A stretch of 64,000 nucleotides of DNA from an uncultured Gammaproteobacteria bacterium (GTDB taxonomy: Bacteria > Pseudomonadota > Gammaproteobacteria > Ga0077536). Position 1 is the stretch's first letter. Each line of letters begins with the position of its first letter. A model generated the notes under the pieces. The model did no database searches. It saw only the letters and a list, made by a program, of their open reading frames with translations, and was not told where the DNA came from. Positions 36,377 through 48,067 of the stretch are shown here, in pieces. Location of the stretch: assembly GCA_942490995.1 (NCBI GenBank), contig CALOBG010000065.1:7005-71004 (forward strand), given 5' to 3'. The translations under genes and the position numbers were made by a program.

Positions 36377-38194
36377 CTAAATATGCAACTTGCTGACCCG
36401 GCGGCCGCCGTAGATCAGGTTGATAATCGCGCGGGTACCGGCGATGGCGGTGAACATCGAAGTCACGATGCCAAGCGACAACGTGACGGCGAAGCCCTTG
36501 ACCGGACCGGTGCCGAAACTGAACAGCACCACCGCCGCGATCAGGGTCGTGATGTTGGCGTCGGCAATCGTCGAAAACGCCTTGTCGTAGCCCGAATTGA
36601 TACTCATCTGGGGCGAGTTGCCATTCGCGATTTCCTCACGGATACGCTGGAAAATCAGCACGTTCGCGTCGACCGCCATACCGATGGTAAGCACGATACC
36701 GGCGATACCCGGCAGGGTCAGGGTGGCCTGCAGCAGCGACAACAGGGCTACGATCAGGACCAGGTTGAGGAGCAAGGCGAGGTTCGCGACCAGGCCGAAA
36801 ACCTTGTAGTACAGGGCCATGAAAACCAGCACCCCGGCCATGCCGATGACGATCGACTTCAGGCCCTGGTCGATATTGTCCTGGCCGAGGCTCGGGCCGA
36901 CGGTGCGCTCCTCGATGATTTCGATCGGCGCGGCCAGCGCGCCGGCGCGCAGCAGCAAAGCGAGGGTGCGCGCCTCCTCGGTGCTGTCGAGGCCGGTGAT
37001 CTGGAAACGCTTGGACAACTCGTCGCGTATGGTGGCGACGTTGATCACTTCTTCTACCGGCCGGCCCTTGCGCTGCTCGATATAGACCACCGCCATCGGC
37101 TTGCCGATCTGCTCGCGGGTGGCGCGGCTGAATAGCCGCGCGCCCTTGCCGTCGAGGGTGATGAACACCGCCGGGCTGCCGGTCTGCTGCTCGATGCCGG
37201 ACGAGGCATCGATGATGTACTCGCCGGTCAGCATGATGCGCTTCTCGGTCAGTACCGGCGCGCCGTTACGCTCGTAGTAAAGCTTGGAGTTGACCGGTAC
37301 ACGGCCGTCGACCGCGGCCTGCACATCGCCTTCAAGGTCGACCATGCGAAATTCCAGGGTCGCCGTGGCGCCGAGAATTTTTTTCGCCTCGGCGGTGTCC
37401 TCGATGCCTGGTAGCTGCACCACGATGCGGCGGTCACCCTGCTGCTGGATGACCGGTTCGGCGACACCGAATTCGTTGACGCGGTTGCGCAGCGTGGTCA
37501 GGTTCTGTTTCAGCGCCGTGCGCCGCGTTTCCTCCATCAACGTTTCGCTGACGGTGAGGTGCAGATCGGCGCTGTCCTCGCCCTCGCTGACGGCGAGGTC
37601 GGCATAGTCCGCTTCGATCACGGTGAGGCCGCGGGCATGCATATCCTCGTTGAGAAAACTGACCTTGATGCCGCCTTCGGCGCCACGCGCGATCGAACGG
37701 TAGCGGATCTTGGCTTCGCGAAAAGCGGTGCGCAACTCGGACACGAAGCGCTCGTCGGTCTGAACCCGCACCGCGTCCATGTCGACTTCCATCAGAAAAT
37801 GCACGCCGCCGCGCAAGTCTAGCCCCATGTACATCTGTTTGCCGCCCAGATCGCGCAACCACCCAGGGGTCGCCGAGGCCAGGTTGAGGGCGACGATGTA
37901 GCGTTGTTCGCCTACCGCTTCGAGCACCACCGGGCGGGCGCGCTCACGGGTCGCGGTATCTTCGAAGCGGATCATCAAGCGCTTTTCTTCAAGCTTGACG
38001 CTGAGCGGCGCGATGTCGGCGTCCTCGAGCGCGCTGCGCACGTTTTCGAGCAGCGCCTGGTCGACCGGTTCGGCGCGCCGCGCCGAGACCTGCAGCGCCG
38101 GGTCGTCGCCATAGAGGTTGGGCAGCGCATAGAGCAGGCCTGCCCCGATCACGGCGATCAGCAGGAGATAGCGCCACAGCGGGTATCGATTCAT
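36377..38194 (-). CDS. secD: Protein translocase subunit SecD
   Basis: GLDLRGGVHF, GVAEPVIQ, GPSLG, GMAVDANV. Confidence 0.98.
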   Translation of the reverse strand: MNRYPLWRYLLLIAVIGAGLLYALPNLYGDDPALQVSARRAEPVDQALLENVRSALEDADIAPLSVKLEEKRLMIRFEDTATRERARPVVLEAVGEQRYIVALNLASATPGWLRDLGGKQMYMGLDLRGGVHFLMEVDMDAVRVQTDERFVSELRTAFREAKIRYRSIARGAEGGIKVSFLNEDMHARGLTVIEADYADLAVSEGEDSADLHLTVSETLMEETRRTALKQNLTTLRNRVNEFGVAEPVIQQQGDRRIVVQLPGIEDTAEAKKILGATATLEFRMVDLEGDVQAAVDGRVPVNSKLYYERNGAPVLTEKRIMLTGEYIIDASSGIEQQTGSPAVFITLDGKGARLFSRATREQIGKPMAVVYIEQRKGRPVEEVINVATIRDELSKRFQITGLDSTEEARTLALLLRAGALAAPIEIIEERTVGPSLGQDNIDQGLKSIVIGMAGVLVFMALYYKVFGLVANLALLLNLVLIVALLSLLQATLTLPGIAGIVLTIGMAVDANVLIFQRIREEIANGNSPQMSINSGYDKAFSTIADANITTLIAAVVLFSFGTGPVKGFAVTLSLGIVTSMFTAIAGTRAIINLIYGGRRVSKLHI

Positions 38195-38257
38195 GTGGAG
38201 GGATCCGGGTTACGGTCAGGGTTGTAAGTGGGGTGGTCCGCGACGTTGCGTGCGAGA

Positions 38258-38587
38258 CTACATTTCTTTCACGGTACCCTTGGGCATGATCTGGGCAATC
38301 GCGTGTTTCTGGATCTTGACCTCGGTGTCCTTGGCGACTTCGAGCTTGACGAAATTGTCGCCGACCTCGGTGACGCGCCCGAGCAGGCCGCCGCTGGTGA
38401 CCGCCTCGTCACCCTTGGCCAGATCCTGCACGAGCTTGGCATGCTCCTTCTGGCGCTTCATCTGCGGCCGGATCAGGAACAGGTAAAAAACCACGAACAG
38501 GATGACCAGCGGCAGAAAGCCGGCCAGCCCCGGGTCCTGGGCGCCGGCCGCGCTCTGGGCAAAGGCGTCTTGAATGAGATAGTCCAT
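38258..38587 (-). CDS. yajC: Preprotein translocase subunit YajC
   Basis: FYLFLIRPQMKRQKEH, GDEAVTSGG; ATG at 38587. Confidence 0.96.
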   Translation of the reverse strand: MDYLIQDAFAQSAAGAQDPGLAGFLPLVILFVVFYLFLIRPQMKRQKEHAKLVQDLAKGDEAVTSGGLLGRVTEVGDNFVKLEVAKDTEVKIQKHAIAQIMPKGTVKEM

Positions 38588-38639
38588 TGAATTCCCCAAA
38601 AAATGGCCGCGTATTATGCCATACCACCGCGGGCGATGG

Positions 38640-40807
<2,168 letters not shown>

Positions 40808-40852
40808 CGCGCAATGCTAAGTTGTCGGCAGGAATTAATCACGCAGCTCGCC

Positions 40853-40881
40853 TCGACCGGCAGGCAGGCATTCTCTATACT
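40853..40881 (+). promoter_or_regulatory. Putative sigma70 promoter of tRNA-Leu
   Basis: TCGACC, 17-bp spacer, TATACT, 18 nt upstream of the tRNA 5' end. Confidence 0.55.
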
Positions 40882-40899
40882 CCGGCCCCTTCGCATCCA

Positions 40900-40986
40900 G
40901 CCGGGATGGCGGAACTGGTAGACGCGCCAGACTCAAAATCTGGTATCCGTAAGGATGTGGGGGTTCGATTCCCCCTCCCGGTACCA
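40900..40986 (+). tRNA. tRNA-Leu (anticodon CAA)
   Basis: Acceptor GCCGGGA/TCCCGGT plus ACCA, anticodon arm CCAGA-CTCAAAA-TCTGG, long variable arm, T arm GGGGG-TTCGATT-CCCCC. Confidence 0.98.
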
Positions 40987-41098
40987 ACAGTTACATCGTC
41001 GCGACTGCTGACTACCAGTTGCCAGCGATCAGATAGCAATCACCGTGGTGACGAAACGGCCTTCCGTGCGCACGGCACTGACTGCCGTCGGCCGGCCG

Positions 41099-41839
41099 CT
41101 ACGGAGCGCCCTCTGCGGGAACTTCGACGTTCCGCGCTGGCTTTCCCAACAGTTCCAGCGTGCCGACGATATGCGATTCCATCGCAACGCGCGATACGTC
41201 GGCGTTGCCCAGACGAATGGCGCGCCGGATCCCGTCATGATCTACGTTGCGATCGTGAACCGAGTCGGCCAGGCAACTGCTCCCTCCGACCGTGGCAATG
41301 AGAAAGTCGGACATGTCCCACATCCGCTCACTTGCCTCGGCCATGATCCGGGAATCCGCCATCGCGTGGATCATGAGATGAAAACCGCGGTTAGACGTAC
41401 GGTAGGCTCGGGCGCGTTGTTCGCGATCGGAGAGCGCGGGTAACTTTTCGATCAAATCCCAGGCAGCATCGAGGTCGACCAGCTGGGTATCCGTCCGGCG
41501 TTTGGCCGCTACGGCCGCGATCTCGCCCTCGAAAGCGGCGAACATGCGGAAGAAATCCTGCGTTTCGCGCAACGAATAGGCTGCCACCCGGCATCCGCTT
41601 TGCGGCGCAACCTCCACCAGGCCAAGCGACTCAAGGCGGCGCATCGCGTCCATAACCGGCTGGCGGCTGACGTCAAAACTGGTACACAGGGAGTCAATTG
41701 AGAATCGTTCACCCGCAGCGTAGTGACCAGCAAACAATTGGTCGCGCAACTCGTCGTAGACGGTCCGACCAAGGTGCCGCCCGCGAGACGCTGTCTGCCT
41801 TGTGCGTGCGTCCTGTCGGGGTTTTTCTTGTGCGCTCAC
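41099..41839 (-). CDS. GntR-family regulator (FCD type), last gene of the aromatic operon
   Basis: wHTH VYDELRDQLFAG..FDVSRQPVMDAMRRLESLGLV, FCD motif NRGFHLMI; GTG start. Confidence 0.9.
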   Translation of the reverse strand: MSAQEKPRQDARTRQTASRGRHLGRTVYDELRDQLFAGHYAAGERFSIDSLCTSFDVSRQPVMDAMRRLESLGLVEVAPQSGCRVAAYSLRETQDFFRMFAAFEGEIAAVAAKRRTDTQLVDLDAAWDLIEKLPALSDREQRARAYRTSNRGFHLMIHAMADSRIMAEASERMWDMSDFLIATVGGSSCLADSVHDRNVDHDGIRRAIRLGNADVSRVAMESHIVGTLELLGKPARNVEVPAEGAP

Positions 41840-41854
41840 AACGCGATCAGTGTG

Positions 41855-42814
41855 TCATCCAGGGGTGACGCTGTCGATTGGCATTGCCACGGTGACGGCA
41901 AAACCTGCGATTAGTGCCTCGATCGGGCGGTAGTATCGGAATTCGACAGAATATCGACCGCTTTGGGCCAGCGCAGCGTAGGCCGCCAGCCACGTTCGTA
42001 CTTCGTGGGCGGAGTTCCCGGCCGCAGCCGCCATTGCCCCTGCCGTCCAGCTGTCCAGCTTCGTCAGTTCACCTGACGCCAGTATGTTCAGAAATGTCTC
42101 ATCCCATTCGGGAGCGAGCGCCCGAATGTCGGACCTGCCGTTGGCGAAATCTCCCGCCGCATCGATGACCCGCTTCTGGCGTGCTCGGCGCGCCTCGAGG
42201 GACAAGGGCTGCGTATGTCCCAGTAGCATGCGTCGCTGCTCGGCCGTTGCCGATGCGTAGCGTGGTACGGGCGGATCGTGTGACAGGCCACCCGAGGCGA
42301 CGATCAGCACGCGTCGGCGGAGTTGCTTCACGAACTTGCCTACAGCTTCACCGAGCAGACGCACCCGCGCCATGGGTGGAAACGGCGGTGCCACGCCATT
42401 TACGAAAATCGGGACGACCGGCCTCGCGCGAATGCTTCCGAACACGATTTGAAGAGGCTGGACGATACCGTGGTCGACCTGCATGTCCATCGAAACCGCC
42501 AGATCGATGCCGGCGTCGAGCACGGCTTCCGCCAACTCCATGGCAAGCGCCTCGGGAACGTCCAGTGCGCCCGCCTCTCCGCCGTAATCACCAATGCTCG
42601 TGGCGGCGCAACCGAGACAGAACGGCGGCATGACATTGTAGAAAAATCCATTGTAATGGTCGGGTCCGAACACGATGACCAACTCGGGAGCGAAGTCCTC
42701 AACGAACTGCCGCGCATGCTCAAAGGCAGTGTCGAGACCCCTTGCCGTCAATGGATCGAGATCGACGTTACCGATCAGCGGGCTGTGACTCATCGCCAGT
42801 AACGCAACGCTCAT
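41855..42814 (-). CDS. mhpB: Extradiol dioxygenase, class III, 2,3-dihydroxyphenylpropionate 1,2-dioxygenase-like (MhpB/HppB/OhpD)
   Basis: MSHSPL, PDHYNGFFY, VDHG, SGGLSHDPPVP, GNSAHEVRTW; ATG 42814 with AGGAG RBS. Confidence 0.85.
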   Translation of the reverse strand: MSVALLAMSHSPLIGNVDLDPLTARGLDTAFEHARQFVEDFAPELVIVFGPDHYNGFFYNVMPPFCLGCAATSIGDYGGEAGALDVPEALAMELAEAVLDAGIDLAVSMDMQVDHGIVQPLQIVFGSIRARPVVPIFVNGVAPPFPPMARVRLLGEAVGKFVKQLRRRVLIVASGGLSHDPPVPRYASATAEQRRMLLGHTQPLSLEARRARQKRVIDAAGDFANGRSDIRALAPEWDETFLNILASGELTKLDSWTAGAMAAAAGNSAHEVRTWLAAYAALAQSGRYSVEFRYYRPIEALIAGFAVTVAMPIDSVTPG

Positions 42815-42868
42815 TTGCGCGTTACTCCTGGATCCGCACAAGCTCCGCCCACGCGTCGTCGCGTGAAC

Positions 42869-43981
42869 TTAGTAGGTGACCACAACATTCGTGAAGCCGC
42901 CTTTCCGCTGTTCGGTCGCATCCAGTGCATCGTTGATGTCATCCAGCGCGTAACGTTCGTGCCTGAACACGGACAGGTCCAGAACGCCGGCGTCAGCCAT
43001 CGCCGCCATGTCCTCACCGTCCTTGCTCGTAAACCACAGGGAACCCACGTAAGACTTCTGCAGGCACATGATCTTGAAAGGATCCAGTCGGACGGCTTCT
43101 GCGACGCCGCCGATATTGATCACCGTTCCGCCTCTTCGCAGACCGTCAACGGCGTCCAAAACCGTCGCCGCAGGTGCATTAGGTCCGAGGCACGAGATGA
43201 CGGCATCAACCCCGAATCCATCTGTGACTTCCATGATGCGCTCTGCCGTCGATCCTTCTTCCAGCGCAAGCGGTACGACGCGGGTCTTGTCCAGGGCGTG
43301 CACTTCGTTCAGCAACTGCCTGTTCCGGCCTGTACCAAAAACCCGGGTCGCGCCCATCGCCAGGGCATTGAGAACCGCACACAACCCCAGCGTGCCGGTC
43401 GCGCCGTCAACCAGTACCGACTGGCCGGCTTCGAAGCGGGCTTTTCGCAACGCCGCATAGGCCGTTCCGAGGTAGCCGAAACGGGCTCCCTGCTCAAAAC
43501 TGATGCTCTGCGGTAACTTCACCAGGTTGTCTGCAGGCGCAGTCAGATACTCGCCGAACCCCCCGTAAGGGTAATCTTCAAACAGCTGCTGGGAGCCTGC
43601 GCCAAATCCGAAGTAACCCTGGAATGTATAGGCCGGGCAATTGATCTTGTCGCCGCTCCTGCAGGCCTTGCAACTACCACAGGAAAGACCGGGATTGACA
43701 TAGACCCGGTCACCGGGCGCTATGCCGCTGCGGATCCGGGCACCCACCGCCGCCACCACCCCCGCGGCATCGAGCCCGAAGATCGCGGGCAGTTTCGGCA
43801 GCGGCAGATAAGGGAACCACTTCGGGTAATTCGTGATGACGTTGCGAAGGTTGGGCACGACCCCTGCTGCTTTGACCTCAACAAGTACGTCGGTGTCGCG
43901 GATCTCCGGCACGGGTATGGTGTCGATCCGGAATTGCTCGCTGATGCCGTGCAGACGCGCGGCACGCATTGTGTCTGTCAT
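42869..43981 (-). CDS. Medium-chain dehydrogenase/reductase with structural-Zn lobe but no catalytic Zn ligands
   Basis: GroES-like start, CGSCKAC-x7-C lobe, GATGTLG Rossmann motif; AAGVVPN and GLDAAG replace the C-x-x-D and GHE motifs. Confidence 0.85.
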   Translation of the reverse strand: MTDTMRAARLHGISEQFRIDTIPVPEIRDTDVLVEVKAAGVVPNLRNVITNYPKWFPYLPLPKLPAIFGLDAAGVVAAVGARIRSGIAPGDRVYVNPGLSCGSCKACRSGDKINCPAYTFQGYFGFGAGSQQLFEDYPYGGFGEYLTAPADNLVKLPQSISFEQGARFGYLGTAYAALRKARFEAGQSVLVDGATGTLGLCAVLNALAMGATRVFGTGRNRQLLNEVHALDKTRVVPLALEEGSTAERIMEVTDGFGVDAVISCLGPNAPAATVLDAVDGLRRGGTVINIGGVAEAVRLDPFKIMCLQKSYVGSLWFTSKDGEDMAAMADAGVLDLSVFRHERYALDDINDALDATEQRKGGFTNVVVTY

Positions 43982-44156
43982 CAATGGTTCTCCTGTGTTT
44001 TTTCGTAGCTACGCTGCGCTGGGTGCCGTTTGGAGCCGAATCTCGGCGCGCTCACGGCGGAGACGAAGTGTCATCGATGTCCTGGCCTTCGCGCCTCACC
44101 TGGCAGCTACACTCCCGCTTATTTCGTAAAGCAGTTCGCGCTCGGTCGTGGCCGAC

Positions 44157-45041
44157 TCAACTAGCCGCGTCCCTTTCCCCGAGCAGGAACCCGAGGTGGA
44201 TTCGATTGAACGTCTCGGTGTCCTCGTACTGTGGCCAGTGGCCGCAATTCTCGATCACCGCGAGCTGGGCATTCGGAATGAGAGACGCGATGCGCCGGCC
44301 TTCGTCAACCGGGCCGGAGGGATCCTTTGTCGTCCAGATGACGAGCGCCTCGGCCGTGATTGCACGCAAATCATCGTCCGACAGCATGTTGCGCTTGCGG
44401 ATCTCGAGGTTCTGCAGGGCCATGTTCATTTCGCACGCCCGCAGCCATCCGGTCTGTTCAAAGATCGCCTGGCGTGTACGGATCAAGTCATCGGTCACCA
44501 TCGCCGGATCGGCCATCAGCCATTCGAGCCGCGCTTTGACGCGTTCCCAGGAAGGATCACGTGCGGCCTCCATCGACAAGCTCAGAAGGCGCTCCATCAC
44601 CGCCGGATTGGCCATGGTCCCGCCCATCGTGTTGAGCACGATCTTCTCGACGCGGTCGGCGTGGGTAGTCGCGTAGCGCGCAGTGACCCATCCGCCAAGG
44701 GACTCACCGCTGAAATAAGCCGTGTCCGCGCCAATGGCGTCCAGGACGTGTGACACATGATCGATGTAGTGCGGTATTTCAAGCGGGTGATCGGGCTTGG
44801 ACGAGTACCCGTGTCCGATGAAATCAATGGCCCAGACCGAAAAATGTTCGGCATGTGCAGCCAGATTCCGAACGTAAGCTTCGGCGTGACCGGTGATACC
44901 GTGCAGGAACAGCAGCACGGGTTTAGTCTCATCGCCGGCATGAAGATAGCGGGTGCGGTACGGCCCGGTGTCAAGAAAACCCTGGCAGAAGGACACCTCG
45001 CGAAGGTCATCCCAAACGCTACTGTATGCTTGGTTCATCAT
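44157..45041 (-). CDS. Meta-cleavage product C-C hydrolase (HppC/OhpC/MhpC-like alpha/beta hydrolase)
   Basis: LFLHGITGH, IDFIGHGYSSKP, nucleophile GESLGG, GHWPQYE. Confidence 0.88.
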   Translation of the reverse strand: MMNQAYSSVWDDLREVSFCQGFLDTGPYRTRYLHAGDETKPVLLFLHGITGHAEAYVRNLAAHAEHFSVWAIDFIGHGYSSKPDHPLEIPHYIDHVSHVLDAIGADTAYFSGESLGGWVTARYATTHADRVEKIVLNTMGGTMANPAVMERLLSLSMEAARDPSWERVKARLEWLMADPAMVTDDLIRTRQAIFEQTGWLRACEMNMALQNLEIRKRNMLSDDDLRAITAEALVIWTTKDPSGPVDEGRRIASLIPNAQLAVIENCGHWPQYEDTETFNRIHLGFLLGERDAAS

Positions 45042-45071
45042 TCCGAAATCTCTACGTATATCAAAATCGTT

Positions 45072-46829
45072 TCAGTCGGCACCGGTTCCGAGCACGGTTG
45101 CGAGAGCCTGTTGGATACTTTCGCGTGCCGCCGCGACTTCCCAGACGGGTTCGCTGTAACGCGACGCAACGTAGCCATCGGGGCGGATCAGCAAAGCGCC
45201 GGCCTCGTGAATTTCACGGATTGCATGCCAGTAGCCGTAAAGGTCCAGGGTCGGTACCTCGCCGACCACCACGACCCGGAGAAAGGGAAAGCCCAGCTCG
45301 GTGGCAGCATCTTTCCACGCCCGGCCCGCAATACCTGTAAGCAGCGTAAACAGCCCCTTCCCAACAACATCGAGCGTCGATACTCGCCGCTGCTCGGGGC
45401 CAACAAGCCAGGCATGCGGTAGCTTGGCGCCAGGTCGGGTCGTCGCGTTCAGGTACACCTGCGGGTCCCGCGGCCAACTCTCCGCACTCGCGTTCCGCTC
45501 AGGAATTACGGCCTGCGACGTGTAGCGTTGGTTCAGTTCAACCCCCTGGGCATTGAACTCCGTGTTCTTGTGCTCCAAGGCGGCATAGAGCCGTTCGCGC
45601 AGGCGCACGCCATCAGGGGTAGGCGCTTTGAGTTTAACCAGCCCGTCGCGCACCGGATCGTCGCTGTCCTTTTCATACCATTCCCGCAGCGGTGCATATT
45701 CCTTGCGCGACAGATTGGCCCGCTCGACGATTTGCTTTCCGACCGGAGCCCGCTCGTTCGAATACGATTCGAGCAACGATGGTCCGGCGTAACCCTTGAC
45801 GACATAAGCGAGTTTCCAGGCCAGATTGAAAGCGTCTTGCATGCAGGTGTTTGAACCGAGGCCACTGCTGGGCGGGTGGCGGTGAACGGCGTCGCCACCG
45901 CAGAACACTCTCCCGCGAGACCACTGCGTCGCATACTGCTGATTGACGTACCAACAGGTCTTAGTAAGGATCTCCGGATCAATATCCGGATCGCCAACCA
46001 GTGTTCGGATCTGGGCGGTCACCATCTCGTCGCTAAGGTCAGGTTCGCCGGCCGCGATGTCGAATCCCCACCCGGCGATCCATTGGTGCCACGGCTTGAT
46101 GGCTCGCAGCAGTCCCATACCGATCTCGCCAAAACCAGCATTGGAGTTCACTATCCAATTGAGAATGCTTGGTCGATGTTCGACGTATCGGCGCAGGTCC
46201 GCATTGAACAACACATAGGCGGTCCCGGCCCGTGCCAGTTCGCCCTCAAACGGGAGGTCAATCTGTTCGGCGATTTTTGACTTCGCGCCGTCCATGCCCA
46301 CGAGATACTGTACGCGTCGCTCGTAGGTCGTTTCGGTATTCCGGTCCAGCAGCGTCACGGTGACGCCGGACTCGTCCTCGACATGGGACACGTACTCGGT
46401 GTTGAAAGTCAGAACCGCGCCACGCTCCGCGGCGTTCTTTACGAGGATCGGCTCCATCAACGTCTGCGGCACGTCGAGCAGCGGGCACGGACTCCCCGTC
46501 AGATAGTCACTGCGCCGCGCGTCGCCTGTACCCCATGTCTGCAGGCGCAGGATCTCCTCGCCCGCGAGGCTCGTGGTGAAGAGCGTGTCGCCCATCTTTT
46601 CCCAGGGCGTAGCGTGTTTTCTGACCTCGGGTTCCAGACCCAGGTCACGCAATACTTCCATGGCTCGCTGATTCGTAATGTGAGCCCGGGGCGAGTTCGC
46701 AAGCCAGTTGAACATCGTCACGCCCTGCACGCTTACGCCATGGGTCGCGAGCGCAAGTGCGGTGGTGGCGCCGGCCGGACCCAACCCGACCACCAGTACG
46801 TCCGAATCGAATTCCCCCGCGTTGGACAT
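45072..46829 (-). CDS. FAD-dependent phenol ortho-monooxygenase (TfdB/OhpB-like)
   Basis: VVGLGPAG, RAHITNQRAME, DGAKS, GDAVHRHPPSSGLGSNTCMQDAFNL, C-terminal IRPDGYV thioredoxin-like domain. Confidence 0.9.
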   Translation of the reverse strand: MSNAGEFDSDVLVVGLGPAGATTALALATHGVSVQGVTMFNWLANSPRAHITNQRAMEVLRDLGLEPEVRKHATPWEKMGDTLFTTSLAGEEILRLQTWGTGDARRSDYLTGSPCPLLDVPQTLMEPILVKNAAERGAVLTFNTEYVSHVEDESGVTVTLLDRNTETTYERRVQYLVGMDGAKSKIAEQIDLPFEGELARAGTAYVLFNADLRRYVEHRPSILNWIVNSNAGFGEIGMGLLRAIKPWHQWIAGWGFDIAAGEPDLSDEMVTAQIRTLVGDPDIDPEILTKTCWYVNQQYATQWSRGRVFCGGDAVHRHPPSSGLGSNTCMQDAFNLAWKLAYVVKGYAGPSLLESYSNERAPVGKQIVERANLSRKEYAPLREWYEKDSDDPVRDGLVKLKAPTPDGVRLRERLYAALEHKNTEFNAQGVELNQRYTSQAVIPERNASAESWPRDPQVYLNATTRPGAKLPHAWLVGPEQRRVSTLDVVGKGLFTLLTGIAGRAWKDAATELGFPFLRVVVVGEVPTLDLYGYWHAIREIHEAGALLIRPDGYVASRYSEPVWEVAAARESIQQALATVLGTGAD

Positions 46830-46883
46830 TTTGACCCTCCCGGCTTGACTGCAGCCATTCCCGGCCGACGATTGACCGTAACT

Positions 46884-46909
46884 CGCAGAATTAAAATGTT
46901 AATTTTGCG
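46884..46909. promoter_or_regulatory. Palindromic operator candidate overlapping the -10 element
   Basis: CGCAGAATTAA-aatg-TTAATTTTGCG, 10 of 11 arm positions complementary. Confidence 0.55.
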
Positions 46910-46924
46910 CTGGACTGATGTCAA
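46896..46924 (-). promoter_or_regulatory. sigma70 promoter of the aromatic operon
   Basis: TTGACA (46924-46919), 17-bp spacer, TAACAT (46901-46896), in an AT-rich tract. Confidence 0.7.
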
Positions 46925-47001
46925 ATAATATTTAACTTTCTGTATTTTATAATTTATTTGGCTCTCATTATCAAAATACTCTTAATTTTGACATTCTACT
47001 T

Positions 47002-47223
47002 ATGGTAGTTGCCCATCGCAGACAGTGCGGCGAGACCCTCAAGGTTAAGTACTTCCGCGAAGTGATCTTGCAGGTAACCAACAAGCCCGCTGATGCGCCG
47101 CTCGTCGTGCGCCGTTACGCTGCGGCGGATCGCTTACTCGCCGGATATCTGGCCAACGACACTTTCGATAATTCCCGTCACGACTTCGTCGATCTCAGCC
47201 CGTTCCGGTCGGCTCGCGAGTGA
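47002..47223 (+). CDS. Short ORF divergent from the monooxygenase; possibly a gene remnant
   Basis: 73-aa ORF with no clear RBS and no recognised family. Confidence 0.25.
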   Translation: MVVAHRRQCGETLKVKYFREVILQVTNKPADAPLVVRRYAAADRLLAGYLANDTFDNSRHDFVDLSPFRSARE

Positions 47224-47280
47224 CGACGCACGGGCCAGAAATGACAATTCGCCGACCTTGGCTGGCAGGAACAGCGAAAC

Positions 47281-47482
47281 GAACCGAAGGAGAGCCTGGA
47301 TCGCCGGATGAAAGGGGAGCTGCTGACATCAAGGGATGTTCTATTTCGTTACCGCGCCGAATCTCCAGACCTCACCGGAGAAGTACGCATGGTTAAACAA
47401 CGTCCAGTCTGTGTAAGAAGCGATCGAGTCCAAGCTTGGCGAGAACTCCTTCGTCAAGTATGAGATCTTTGTAATGCGTTAA
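47281..47482 (+). pseudogene. DUF3237 (UPF0311) C-terminal relic
   Basis: EPKESLDRRMKGELLTSRD, frameshift near 47340, then YFVTAPNLQTSPEKYAWLNNVQSV*EAIESKLGENSFVKYEIFVMR* (internal TAA 47414-47416); the YFxTxP..T...KYAWLN pattern is typical of DUF3237. Confidence 0.6.
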
Positions 47483-47503
47483 GACCGAAAGCGGAGACAC
47501 GCC

Positions 47504-48067
47504 ATGGCCGAATACAAAACCAAAGCACTGGACGAGACCACCTGGAAAGACTTTGCCGGTCTGGTCAAAGCCAACAACGGTGTGTGGGGCGGCTGTTGGT
47601 GCATGTGGTATCACCGCAAGGACGCCGGCGAGTCGCCGGAGGCGAAACGCAAGGCCAAGCAGCGCCTCGTTAAGGAAGGTCGAGCGCATGCCGCACTTGT
47701 TTACGATGGCAAGGACTGCGTTGGCTGGTGTCAGTTCGGCTCACCGCAAGAGCTGCCGTGTATCCACAACGAGCGTGCCTACCTCGCGACTGATCCGAAG
47801 CTGCCGGACTGGCGGATCACCTGCTTTTTTTCTGGCAAAGGCTATCGCGGCAAGGGCGTTGCGTCCGCCGCGTTGCAGGGCGCCGTCGAGCAGATCAAAA
47901 AGCTCGGTGGCGGGCGCATCGAGGGCTATCCGGAAAACACCGAGGGTCGCAAGGCTTCGCCGGCGTTTCTGTTCAACGGCGCGCTGTCCACGTTCGAACG
48001 TCTTGGCTTCAAGCGCTCACGGCCGATCGGAAAACACAAGTGGGTGGTGACCCGAACCGTTCGCTGA
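47504..48067 (+). CDS. GNAT-family acetyltransferase
   Basis: GGCWCMW, VGWCQFG, ITCFF, acetyl-CoA motif YRGKGVA, FERLGF; RBS GGAG. Confidence 0.88.
   Translation: MAEYKTKALDETTWKDFAGLVKANNGVWGGCWCMWYHRKDAGESPEAKRKAKQRLVKEGRAHAALVYDGKDCVGWCQFGSPQELPCIHNERAYLATDPKLPDWRITCFFSGKGYRGKGVASAALQGAVEQIKKLGGGRIEGYPENTEGRKASPAFLFNGALSTFERLGFKRSRPIGKHKWVVTRTVR

Follow-up and report, generated by a model that had tools for sequence, protein, structure and literature searches.

We propose that a gene of the medium-chain dehydrogenase/reductase (MDR) superfamily, located inside an aromatic ring-cleavage operon of an uncultured Gammaproteobacteria bacterium, probably encodes the entry reductase of that operon. 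The gene lies on a 64,000-nucleotide stretch of contig CALOBG010000065.1, which was analysed as a whole and is called the window below. Its product would be an NADPH-dependent ene-reductase of the HcdE family that acts on a coumarin-type substrate. HcdE, the 7-hydroxycoumarin reductase of Pseudomonas mandelii 7HK4, uses NADPH only and reduces the C3=C4 double bond of 7-hydroxycoumarin (PMC7913881). It is the one MDR-type coumarin reductase that has been characterised. The family is known and barely characterised, and the gene arrangement of the window was not found described in the literature searched. The gene and its translation signal are as follows.

42869..43981, minus strand: MDR reductase, very probably of the HcdE family, 370 aa; catalytic zinc ligands absent, structural four-cysteine lobe and NADPH-type motif present
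43990..43994, minus strand: AGGAG ribosome-binding site, 8 nt upstream of the MDR ATG, read directly from the sequence

These coordinates hold a single minus-strand open reading frame, which spans 371 codons if read from a TTG at 43984, one codon upstream of the ATG at 43981. The ATG is favoured as the start, because all MDR relatives begin with M-x-x-x-M-R-A-A-R-L-H and the AGGAG motif is placed 8 nt before it. The product contains the Pfam domains ADH_N and ADH_zinc_N and shares 24–29% identity with the other MDRs of its own genome. It retains 89 of the 91 columns that are conserved at 97% or more, which argues for an intact enzyme under constraint.

The catalytic zinc columns were assigned by phmmer alignments to 1e3j and 1h2b and by a MAFFT alignment that included canonical MDR paralogs from the same genome, all of which agree. 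V42 occupies the column of the catalytic cysteine, and the adjacent P43, N44 and L45 stand for H, S and D. L70-D71 takes the place of the His-Glu of the GHE motif, and G169-Y170 locates at the Cys174/Glu155 position. The classical Cys/His/Cys(Glu) ligand set of zinc-dependent alcohol dehydrogenases (ADHs) is missing, its columns being filled by V42, L70 and G169-Y170. Meanwhile, C101, C104, C107 and C115 align with the four cysteines of the structural zinc site and are invariant in the family. The nucleotide-binding motif G193-x-T-G196-T-L-G199 is followed by T217-G218-R219-N220, whereas the canonical paralogs carry an Asp at position 218. We notice that V42, N44, L45, L70, D71, Y170, R219 and the four cysteines are essentially invariant among 119 relatives and six HcdE orthologs.

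A sequence-only reading of this DNA had claimed that all three catalytic zinc positions are replaced, that the structural lobe is intact, and that GATGTLG is followed by GTGRN with no acidic residue. Each of these claims holds, and the replacements extend across about 125 relatives. The T-G/A-R-N motif is common to the window MDR and the HcdE orthologs. Reading GTGRN as an NADPH motif fits HcdE, since that enzyme uses NADPH only. Judged by these residues, the MDR belongs to a zinc-ADH-type branch that appears to have lost the catalytic zinc and kept the structural zinc lobe.

The HcdE ortholog was located via the published hcdE cloning primers (PMC7913881 supplement). Seven Pseudomonas genomes contain an exact match to the gene-specific 21-mer of the reverse primer. 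In all seven, an MDR gene whose product has the C-terminal NYVICP is followed by a cupin gene and then an FMN reductase gene, and in five of them a DUF1185/AA_synth gene upstream completes the published hcdDEFG order. The best match of the forward primer covers 15 of its 16 bases, just before the ATG. Its exact sequence has no match among the fetched loci, so strain 7HK4 is not among these genomes.

The window MDR shares 53% identity over 366 residues (E 5e-134) with the HcdE ortholog of Pseudomonas sp. GM41. Both have the same catalytic-zinc replacements, the intact structural cysteine lobe, the GT(G/A)RN motif and a C-terminal GGF-x-N motif. A quick maximum-likelihood run of IQ-TREE, in which the outgroup consisted only of four own-genome MDR paralogs (24–29% identical), sets the family, including six HcdE orthologs, apart from these paralogs (branch 0.77; Shimodaira–Hasegawa-like approximate likelihood ratio test 99). 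Several lineages are basal in this tree, HcdE among them. The window MDR and a 91% identical metagenomic sequence form the sister group of a large clade, in which the few members with a name come mostly from Burkholderiales. We regard membership of the window MDR in the HcdE family as very probable on these grounds, and its position appears to be outside the HcdE subclade. The analogy with HcdE, which the sequence-only reading had drawn, gains support from the full-length identity, the shared zinc-less residues and the grouping with the HcdE clade.

The MDR gene has the third place in a run of five genes on the same strand, which are ordered hydroxylase, hydrolase, MDR, dioxygenase and regulator. 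The other features of the operon are listed here in the direction of transcription.

46896..46924, minus strand: sigma-70-like promoter, TTGACA-17-TAACAT, upstream of the hydroxylase gene; consensus scan, 10 of 12 matches
45072..46829, minus strand: FAD hydroxylase, 585 aa, with Pfam FAD_binding_3 and Rng_hyd_C; proposed melilotate 3-hydroxylase
44157..45041, minus strand: alpha/beta meta-cleavage-product (C-C bond) hydrolase, 294 aa, assigned from its PDB relatives
41855..42841, minus strand: MhpB-type (LigB fold) 2,3-dihydroxyphenylpropionate 1,2-dioxygenase, 328 aa, assigned from NCBIfam and PDB
41099..41839, minus strand: GntR/FCD-family regulator, Pfam GntR and FCD, last gene of the operon; same position in metagenomic locus L018

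The operon thus holds the set that marks mhp- and ohp-type pathways, namely a flavin hydroxylase, an extradiol dioxygenase for 2,3-dihydroxyphenylpropionate (DHPP) and a hydrolase for the meta-cleavage product (MCP). No obvious terminator is seen between the operon genes, and terminator-like matches stay at the background of shuffled sequence. Among PDB entries, the hydroxylase matches HbpA (2-hydroxybiphenyl 3-monooxygenase) over its full length at E 7e-147 and TfdB (2,4-dichlorophenol 6-monooxygenase) at E 2e-120; the MhpA models of NCBIfam score far lower. HbpA hydroxylates 2-substituted phenols at C3, beside the hydroxyl. As this is the regiochemistry needed, an HbpA-like hydroxylase suits the conversion of melilotate into DHPP. 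The dioxygenase reaches 468 bits against a cut-off of 291 for NF009910 (3-carboxyethylcatechol 2,3-dioxygenase equivalog), and its alignment to MhpB (PDB 8k04) has an E-value of 2e-94.

Nearly all PDB relatives of the hydrolase are MCP hydrolases (CumD, HsaD, BphD, CarC, MhpC), and the same protein fills the MhpC slot in the complete clusters L052, L056 and L071. A primary role as a dihydrocoumarin lactonase was considered for it and rejected for these two reasons. Homologs of mhpD, mhpF and mhpE lie outside the operon, on contig C28 of the same genome. A further LigB dioxygenase and a further MCP hydrolase, 44% and 54% identical respectively, are encoded on another contig of this genome (C68:1-9000, locus L099). 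Their neighbours encode an HpaB-type two-component hydroxylase, a luciferase-like monooxygenase and an amidohydrolase, and the locus looks like a separate aromatic pathway.

The most likely pathway, by analogy with characterised enzymes, would be the classical one, leading from coumarin through dihydrocoumarin and melilotate to DHPP, followed by ring cleavage. An HcdE-type reductase would complete this route, because the hydrolysis of dihydrocoumarin to melilotate is spontaneous. In the proposed mechanism, NADPH would donate a hydride to C4 of the coumarin lactone independently of zinc. Protonation of C3 would follow in a pocket of aromatic and polar character, made up of N44, N47, D71, Y94, N96, Y170 and W316-F317, which are invariant in the family, and would give 3,4-dihydrocoumarin. 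Opening of the lactone, spontaneous or enzyme-aided, would then produce 3-(2-hydroxyphenyl)propionate (melilotate), which the HbpA-like hydroxylase would convert into 3-(2,3-dihydroxyphenyl)propionate. The MhpB-type dioxygenase would cleave the ring, and the MCP hydrolase would release succinate and 2-hydroxypentadienoate, the latter passing to the MhpD/F/E homologs encoded elsewhere in the genome. We infer the mechanism and the residue roles from the biochemistry of HcdE and of other zinc-less MDR ene-reductases, and the substrate and the order of steps are proposed in the same spirit.

A pattern scan of JGI metagenomes returned at least 483 MDR relatives, and 80 loci were fetched; gene contexts were counted by tblastn with reference proteins at chosen identity thresholds. 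The sequence-only reading had tied its proposal to co-occurrence with ring-cleavage operons elsewhere, and such co-occurrence is found. Flanks of 6 kb or more were available at 42 metagenomic loci; 19 of these contain a minimum of two mhp-like genes within 10 kb, and no fewer than four arrangements of the genes are seen. Locus L018 has the exact gene order of the window, and its five proteins are 66–83% identical. In Comamonas testosteroni, a 67% identical MDR homolog stands near the end of the cluster IclR / TctC-hydroxylase-LigB-mhpD-mhpF-mhpE-hydrolase-MDR-cupin, which it closes together with the cupin gene, and the hydroxylase of this cluster is 65% identical to that of the window. At L041, hydroxylase, hydrolase and LigB genes are contiguous and the MDR gene is 5 kb off. 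This layout is consistent with a later insertion of the MDR gene between hydrolase and dioxygenase in the type represented by the window and L018.

A gene for an HcdF-type cupin directly follows the MDR gene in 30 of the 60 metagenomic loci with enough downstream sequence, and it is absent in the window and in L018. This Cupin_2 protein of about 180 aa is also encoded directly after the MDR in Pseudomonas, Comamonas and Variovorax (for example L002:9131-9670, L001:9170-9736 and L011:4993-5544). The authors of the HcdE study suggested that the HcdF cupin might be a dihydrocoumarin hydrolase (PMC7913881). At L029:8549-11095, two tandem MDR-family paralogs (53% and 66% identical to the window MDR) precede the cupin gene, with LigB and mhpD/F/E genes a few kb downstream.

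Two further contexts lack part of the set found in the window. In Variovorax sp. YR216 and three loci, the order is BKACE-HADH-hydratase-CoA ligase-acyl-CoA dehydrogenase-binding protein-MDR-cupin-ABC transporter. Such beta-oxidation-type MDR-cupin clusters occur at L001:1285-13356 (Variovorax sp. YR216), L021, L031, L032, L039 and L040, and they point to a route in which the side chain of the same product would be shortened in a CoA-dependent manner. The other context is found at L044, L046 and L048 (e.g. L048:2989-14004), where the order is MDR-cupin-Phenol_MetA_deg channel-GntR(-)-LigB-MCP hydrolase-mhpD/F/E-MFS-OprD and no hydroxylase is seen within the available flank. This type would fit 8-hydroxycoumarin, from which reduction and ring opening would give DHPP directly. 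Both contexts would be chemically sensible if the product of the reductase is a hydroxyphenylpropionate. Defence-type genes are observed just past two of these gene clusters. In Comamonas (L002:14472-17110) they are SMODS, E2-CBASS and S_4TM, and in Variovorax (L001:13666-17113) a reverse transcriptase (RVT_1) with a SIR2_2 protein. The Comamonas and Variovorax clusters sit in variable regions, as these adjoining genes indicate.

The sequence-only reading had left the substrate between a cinnamate or coumarin double bond and a quinone by-product. The coumarin part is supported by the kinship and the gene contexts given above, while the cinnamate and quinone parts are weakened. Zinc-less MDRs are commonly C=C reductases, and members of the family adjoin acid-uptake components (TctC and Peripla_BP_6/ABC systems). 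Both observations would suit an enzyme that supplies the hydroxylase with phenylpropionates by reducing free hydroxycinnamates (o- or m-coumarate, cinnamate) at the double bond of the side chain. We consider this unlikely. E. coli MhpA/MhpB-type enzymes take the cinnamate forms directly, so that a reduction would be unneeded, and in the beta-oxidation-type clusters the reduction of trans-cinnamate would be futile if an acyl-CoA dehydrogenase re-oxidised it afterwards. HcdE itself is inactive on trans-cinnamic, o-, m- and p-coumaric, caffeic and 2,4-dihydroxycinnamic acids (PMC7913881).

Less probable still is a protective role in quinone reduction, or the reduction of ring-fission or autoxidation products of catechol or trihydroxy intermediates, with no part in pathway entry. 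Many zinc-less MDRs are quinone oxidoreductases (QORs), catecholic intermediates autoxidise, and HcdA alone has been reported to give a reddish product. However, the fold points to another branch. An AlphaFold2 model of the MDR, built from a 13-sequence alignment, has a mean predicted local distance difference test score of 83 and a predicted template modelling score of 0.86. Its top Foldseek matches are MDRs of the zinc-ADH, threonine dehydrogenase and polyol dehydrogenase types at 19–27% identity, not QORs. By phmmer, the QOR entries of the PDB rank far lower and align to the Rossmann (cofactor) half only. A protein of the QOR or zeta-crystallin type would combine a QOR-like fold with the absence of zinc sites, whereas the structural four-cysteine lobe is invariant here. 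The MDR-cupin pair is also found in CoA-ligase/beta-oxidation clusters free of ring-cleavage genes, which makes a ring-fission substrate unlikely, and the closest characterised relative, HcdE, is an entry-step enzyme.

It is most improbable that we have misread an ordinary zinc-dependent alcohol or aldehyde dehydrogenase, for which the generic ADH-family matches in Pfam and NCBIfam and the public names speak ('alcohol dehydrogenase catalytic domain-containing protein' for database relatives, equally generic ADH cluster names in ESM Atlas), as all three catalytic ligand columns are V, L and Y/G throughout the family and the NCBIfam matches, to many MDR models, are sub-threshold with no equivalog near its cut-off.

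Several points weigh against a coumarin-reducing role. The preferred substrate of HcdE is 7-hydroxycoumarin. On coumarin the enzyme is 17-fold slower, and its activity is also weaker on 6,7-dihydroxy-, 6-hydroxy- and 6-methylcoumarin (PMC7913881). This assayed member of the family lies outside the subclade of the window MDR, an identity of 53% leaves room for a different substrate, and the reference used for that comparison is an ortholog from related Pseudomonas strains rather than the 7HK4 protein. The partners encoded by hcdD, hcdF and hcdG (DUF1185/AA_synth, cupin and FMN reductase) are missing from the window operon. The single HcdF-like cupin homolog in this genome (33–36% identity; C136:594-4340, locus L098) is located at a contig end, where its neighbours are a cytochrome P450, a luciferase-like monooxygenase and a TetR regulator; on this ground we rejected it as an unlinked partner. 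The substrate of the hydroxylase is deduced from a relative whose own natural substrate differs. In the AlphaFold2 model, confidence is low at residues 63–68 and 115–133, which leaves the pocket geometry unsettled. Weighing these points together with the evidence above, we still favour a coumarin-type entry reductase as the probable function.

The operon looks like an acquired accessory operon. No MDR homolog was found at E <= 1e-60 in 40 related genomes (one of the same genus, 23 of the same family) or at E <= 1e-70 in 400 genomes sampled evenly across the same class. GC content is 0.58–0.61 in the 2-kb windows covering the operon (42001-48000) and about 0.64–0.65 just below it (38001-42000), within a range of 0.58–0.68 across the whole window. 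A tRNA gene borders the operon just beyond the regulator, and an island-like stretch extends over 40900-46994.

40900..40986, plus strand: tRNA-Leu(CAA), identified by ARAGORN

The absence of a counterpart in the 40 relatives, the shift in GC content and the tRNA border are what give the operon its acquired appearance.

Coumarins are abundant root exudates with roles in plant iron uptake and defence, and their bacterial degradation affects root colonisation (PMC13181038). We tentatively speculate that the HcdE-type reductase, usually with an HcdF-type cupin, is a widespread and horizontally mobile coumarin entry module for at least three lower routes, and that the window carries a compact, self-contained coumarin operon; this broader proposal is considerably less certain than the function of the single enzyme. 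If it is true, the first route would use an HbpA-like hydroxylase with MhpB and MCP hydrolase, degrading coumarin via melilotate. The second would use MhpB and MCP hydrolase without a hydroxylase, as suits 8-hydroxycoumarin. The third would use the CoA-ligase/acyl-CoA dehydrogenase/hydratase set of beta-oxidation, in which reduction and re-oxidation would in effect yield a trans-enoyl-CoA from a double bond that is locked in the cis form. Hundreds of environmental sequences belong to the HcdE family, whose zinc-less active site is fixed and whose genes are repeatedly linked to those of melilotate/DHPP ring cleavage. The family thereby offers a concrete annotation rule, a set of compact operons and flavin-free ene-reductases for biocatalysis.

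None of the solved structures comes from the HcdE family. The best PDB sequence match of the window MDR is 2EIH, an ADH-like protein of Thermus thermophilus from structural genomics, which also lacks the catalytic Cys and His and has the four-cysteine structural lobe. It differs in sequence, with about 27–30% identity, and lacks the W55–P62 loop and the Y123–G141 segment, both of which are family-specific inserts of the window MDR. AibC of Myxococcus xanthus (5K1S), an MDR enoyl-CoA reductase that ranks second among the PDB matches of the N-terminal half, is likewise of the zinc-ADH branch and catalyses C=C reduction. In contrast to the window MDR, it retains the Cys/His/Cys catalytic zinc columns (ACGVCYHD, GHEAAG, CCTTGTA), and its substrate is a CoA thioester.

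Unlike HcdE, the window MDR is encoded not in an hcdDEFG cluster but in an mhp-like operon, flanked by the hydrolase and dioxygenase genes, and its likely substrate would be coumarin rather than umbelliferone. The sequence-only reading had described HcdE as preceding a similar hydroxylase/dioxygenase/hydrolase set. The two sets are analogous; homology of the lower pathway to hcdABC is rejected. HcdA is an ipso-hydroxylase and HcdB a type I extradiol dioxygenase, whereas an HbpA-like hydroxylase and an MhpB-type enzyme of the LigB fold are found here, and the closest counterpart of the window hydroxylase in Pseudomonas GM41 reaches just 29% identity. The ohp operon of Rhodococcus and the mhp operons of E. 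coli and Comamonas share with the window a hydroxylase, an extradiol dioxygenase and an MCP hydrolase for hydroxyphenylpropionates. To our knowledge, neither ohp nor mhp contains a reductase; the MDR here adds an upstream step.

The same reaction as proposed here, from coumarin to dihydrocoumarin, has been assigned to reductases of the old yellow enzyme (OYE) type, and there too the route continues through melilotate and DHPP to MhpB and MhpC. Pseudomonas sp. NyZ480 degrades coumarin via OYE-type XenA reductases, CouC and mhp genes (PMC13181038), and NemA of E. coli is an OYE coumarin reductase (PMC13200227). The fold and cofactor of these FMN-dependent enzymes are unrelated to those of the flavin-free MDR. 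Growth on coumarin persists in xenA knock-outs, and if the broader proposal of an entry module is true, the window operon would be a candidate for the non-OYE coumarin reductases inferred in strain NyZ480. In the literature, the gene sets for coumarin are portrayed as scattered, and in NyZ480 couC is unclustered. In the window, by contrast, reductase, hydroxylase, dioxygenase and hydrolase are brought together in one operon.

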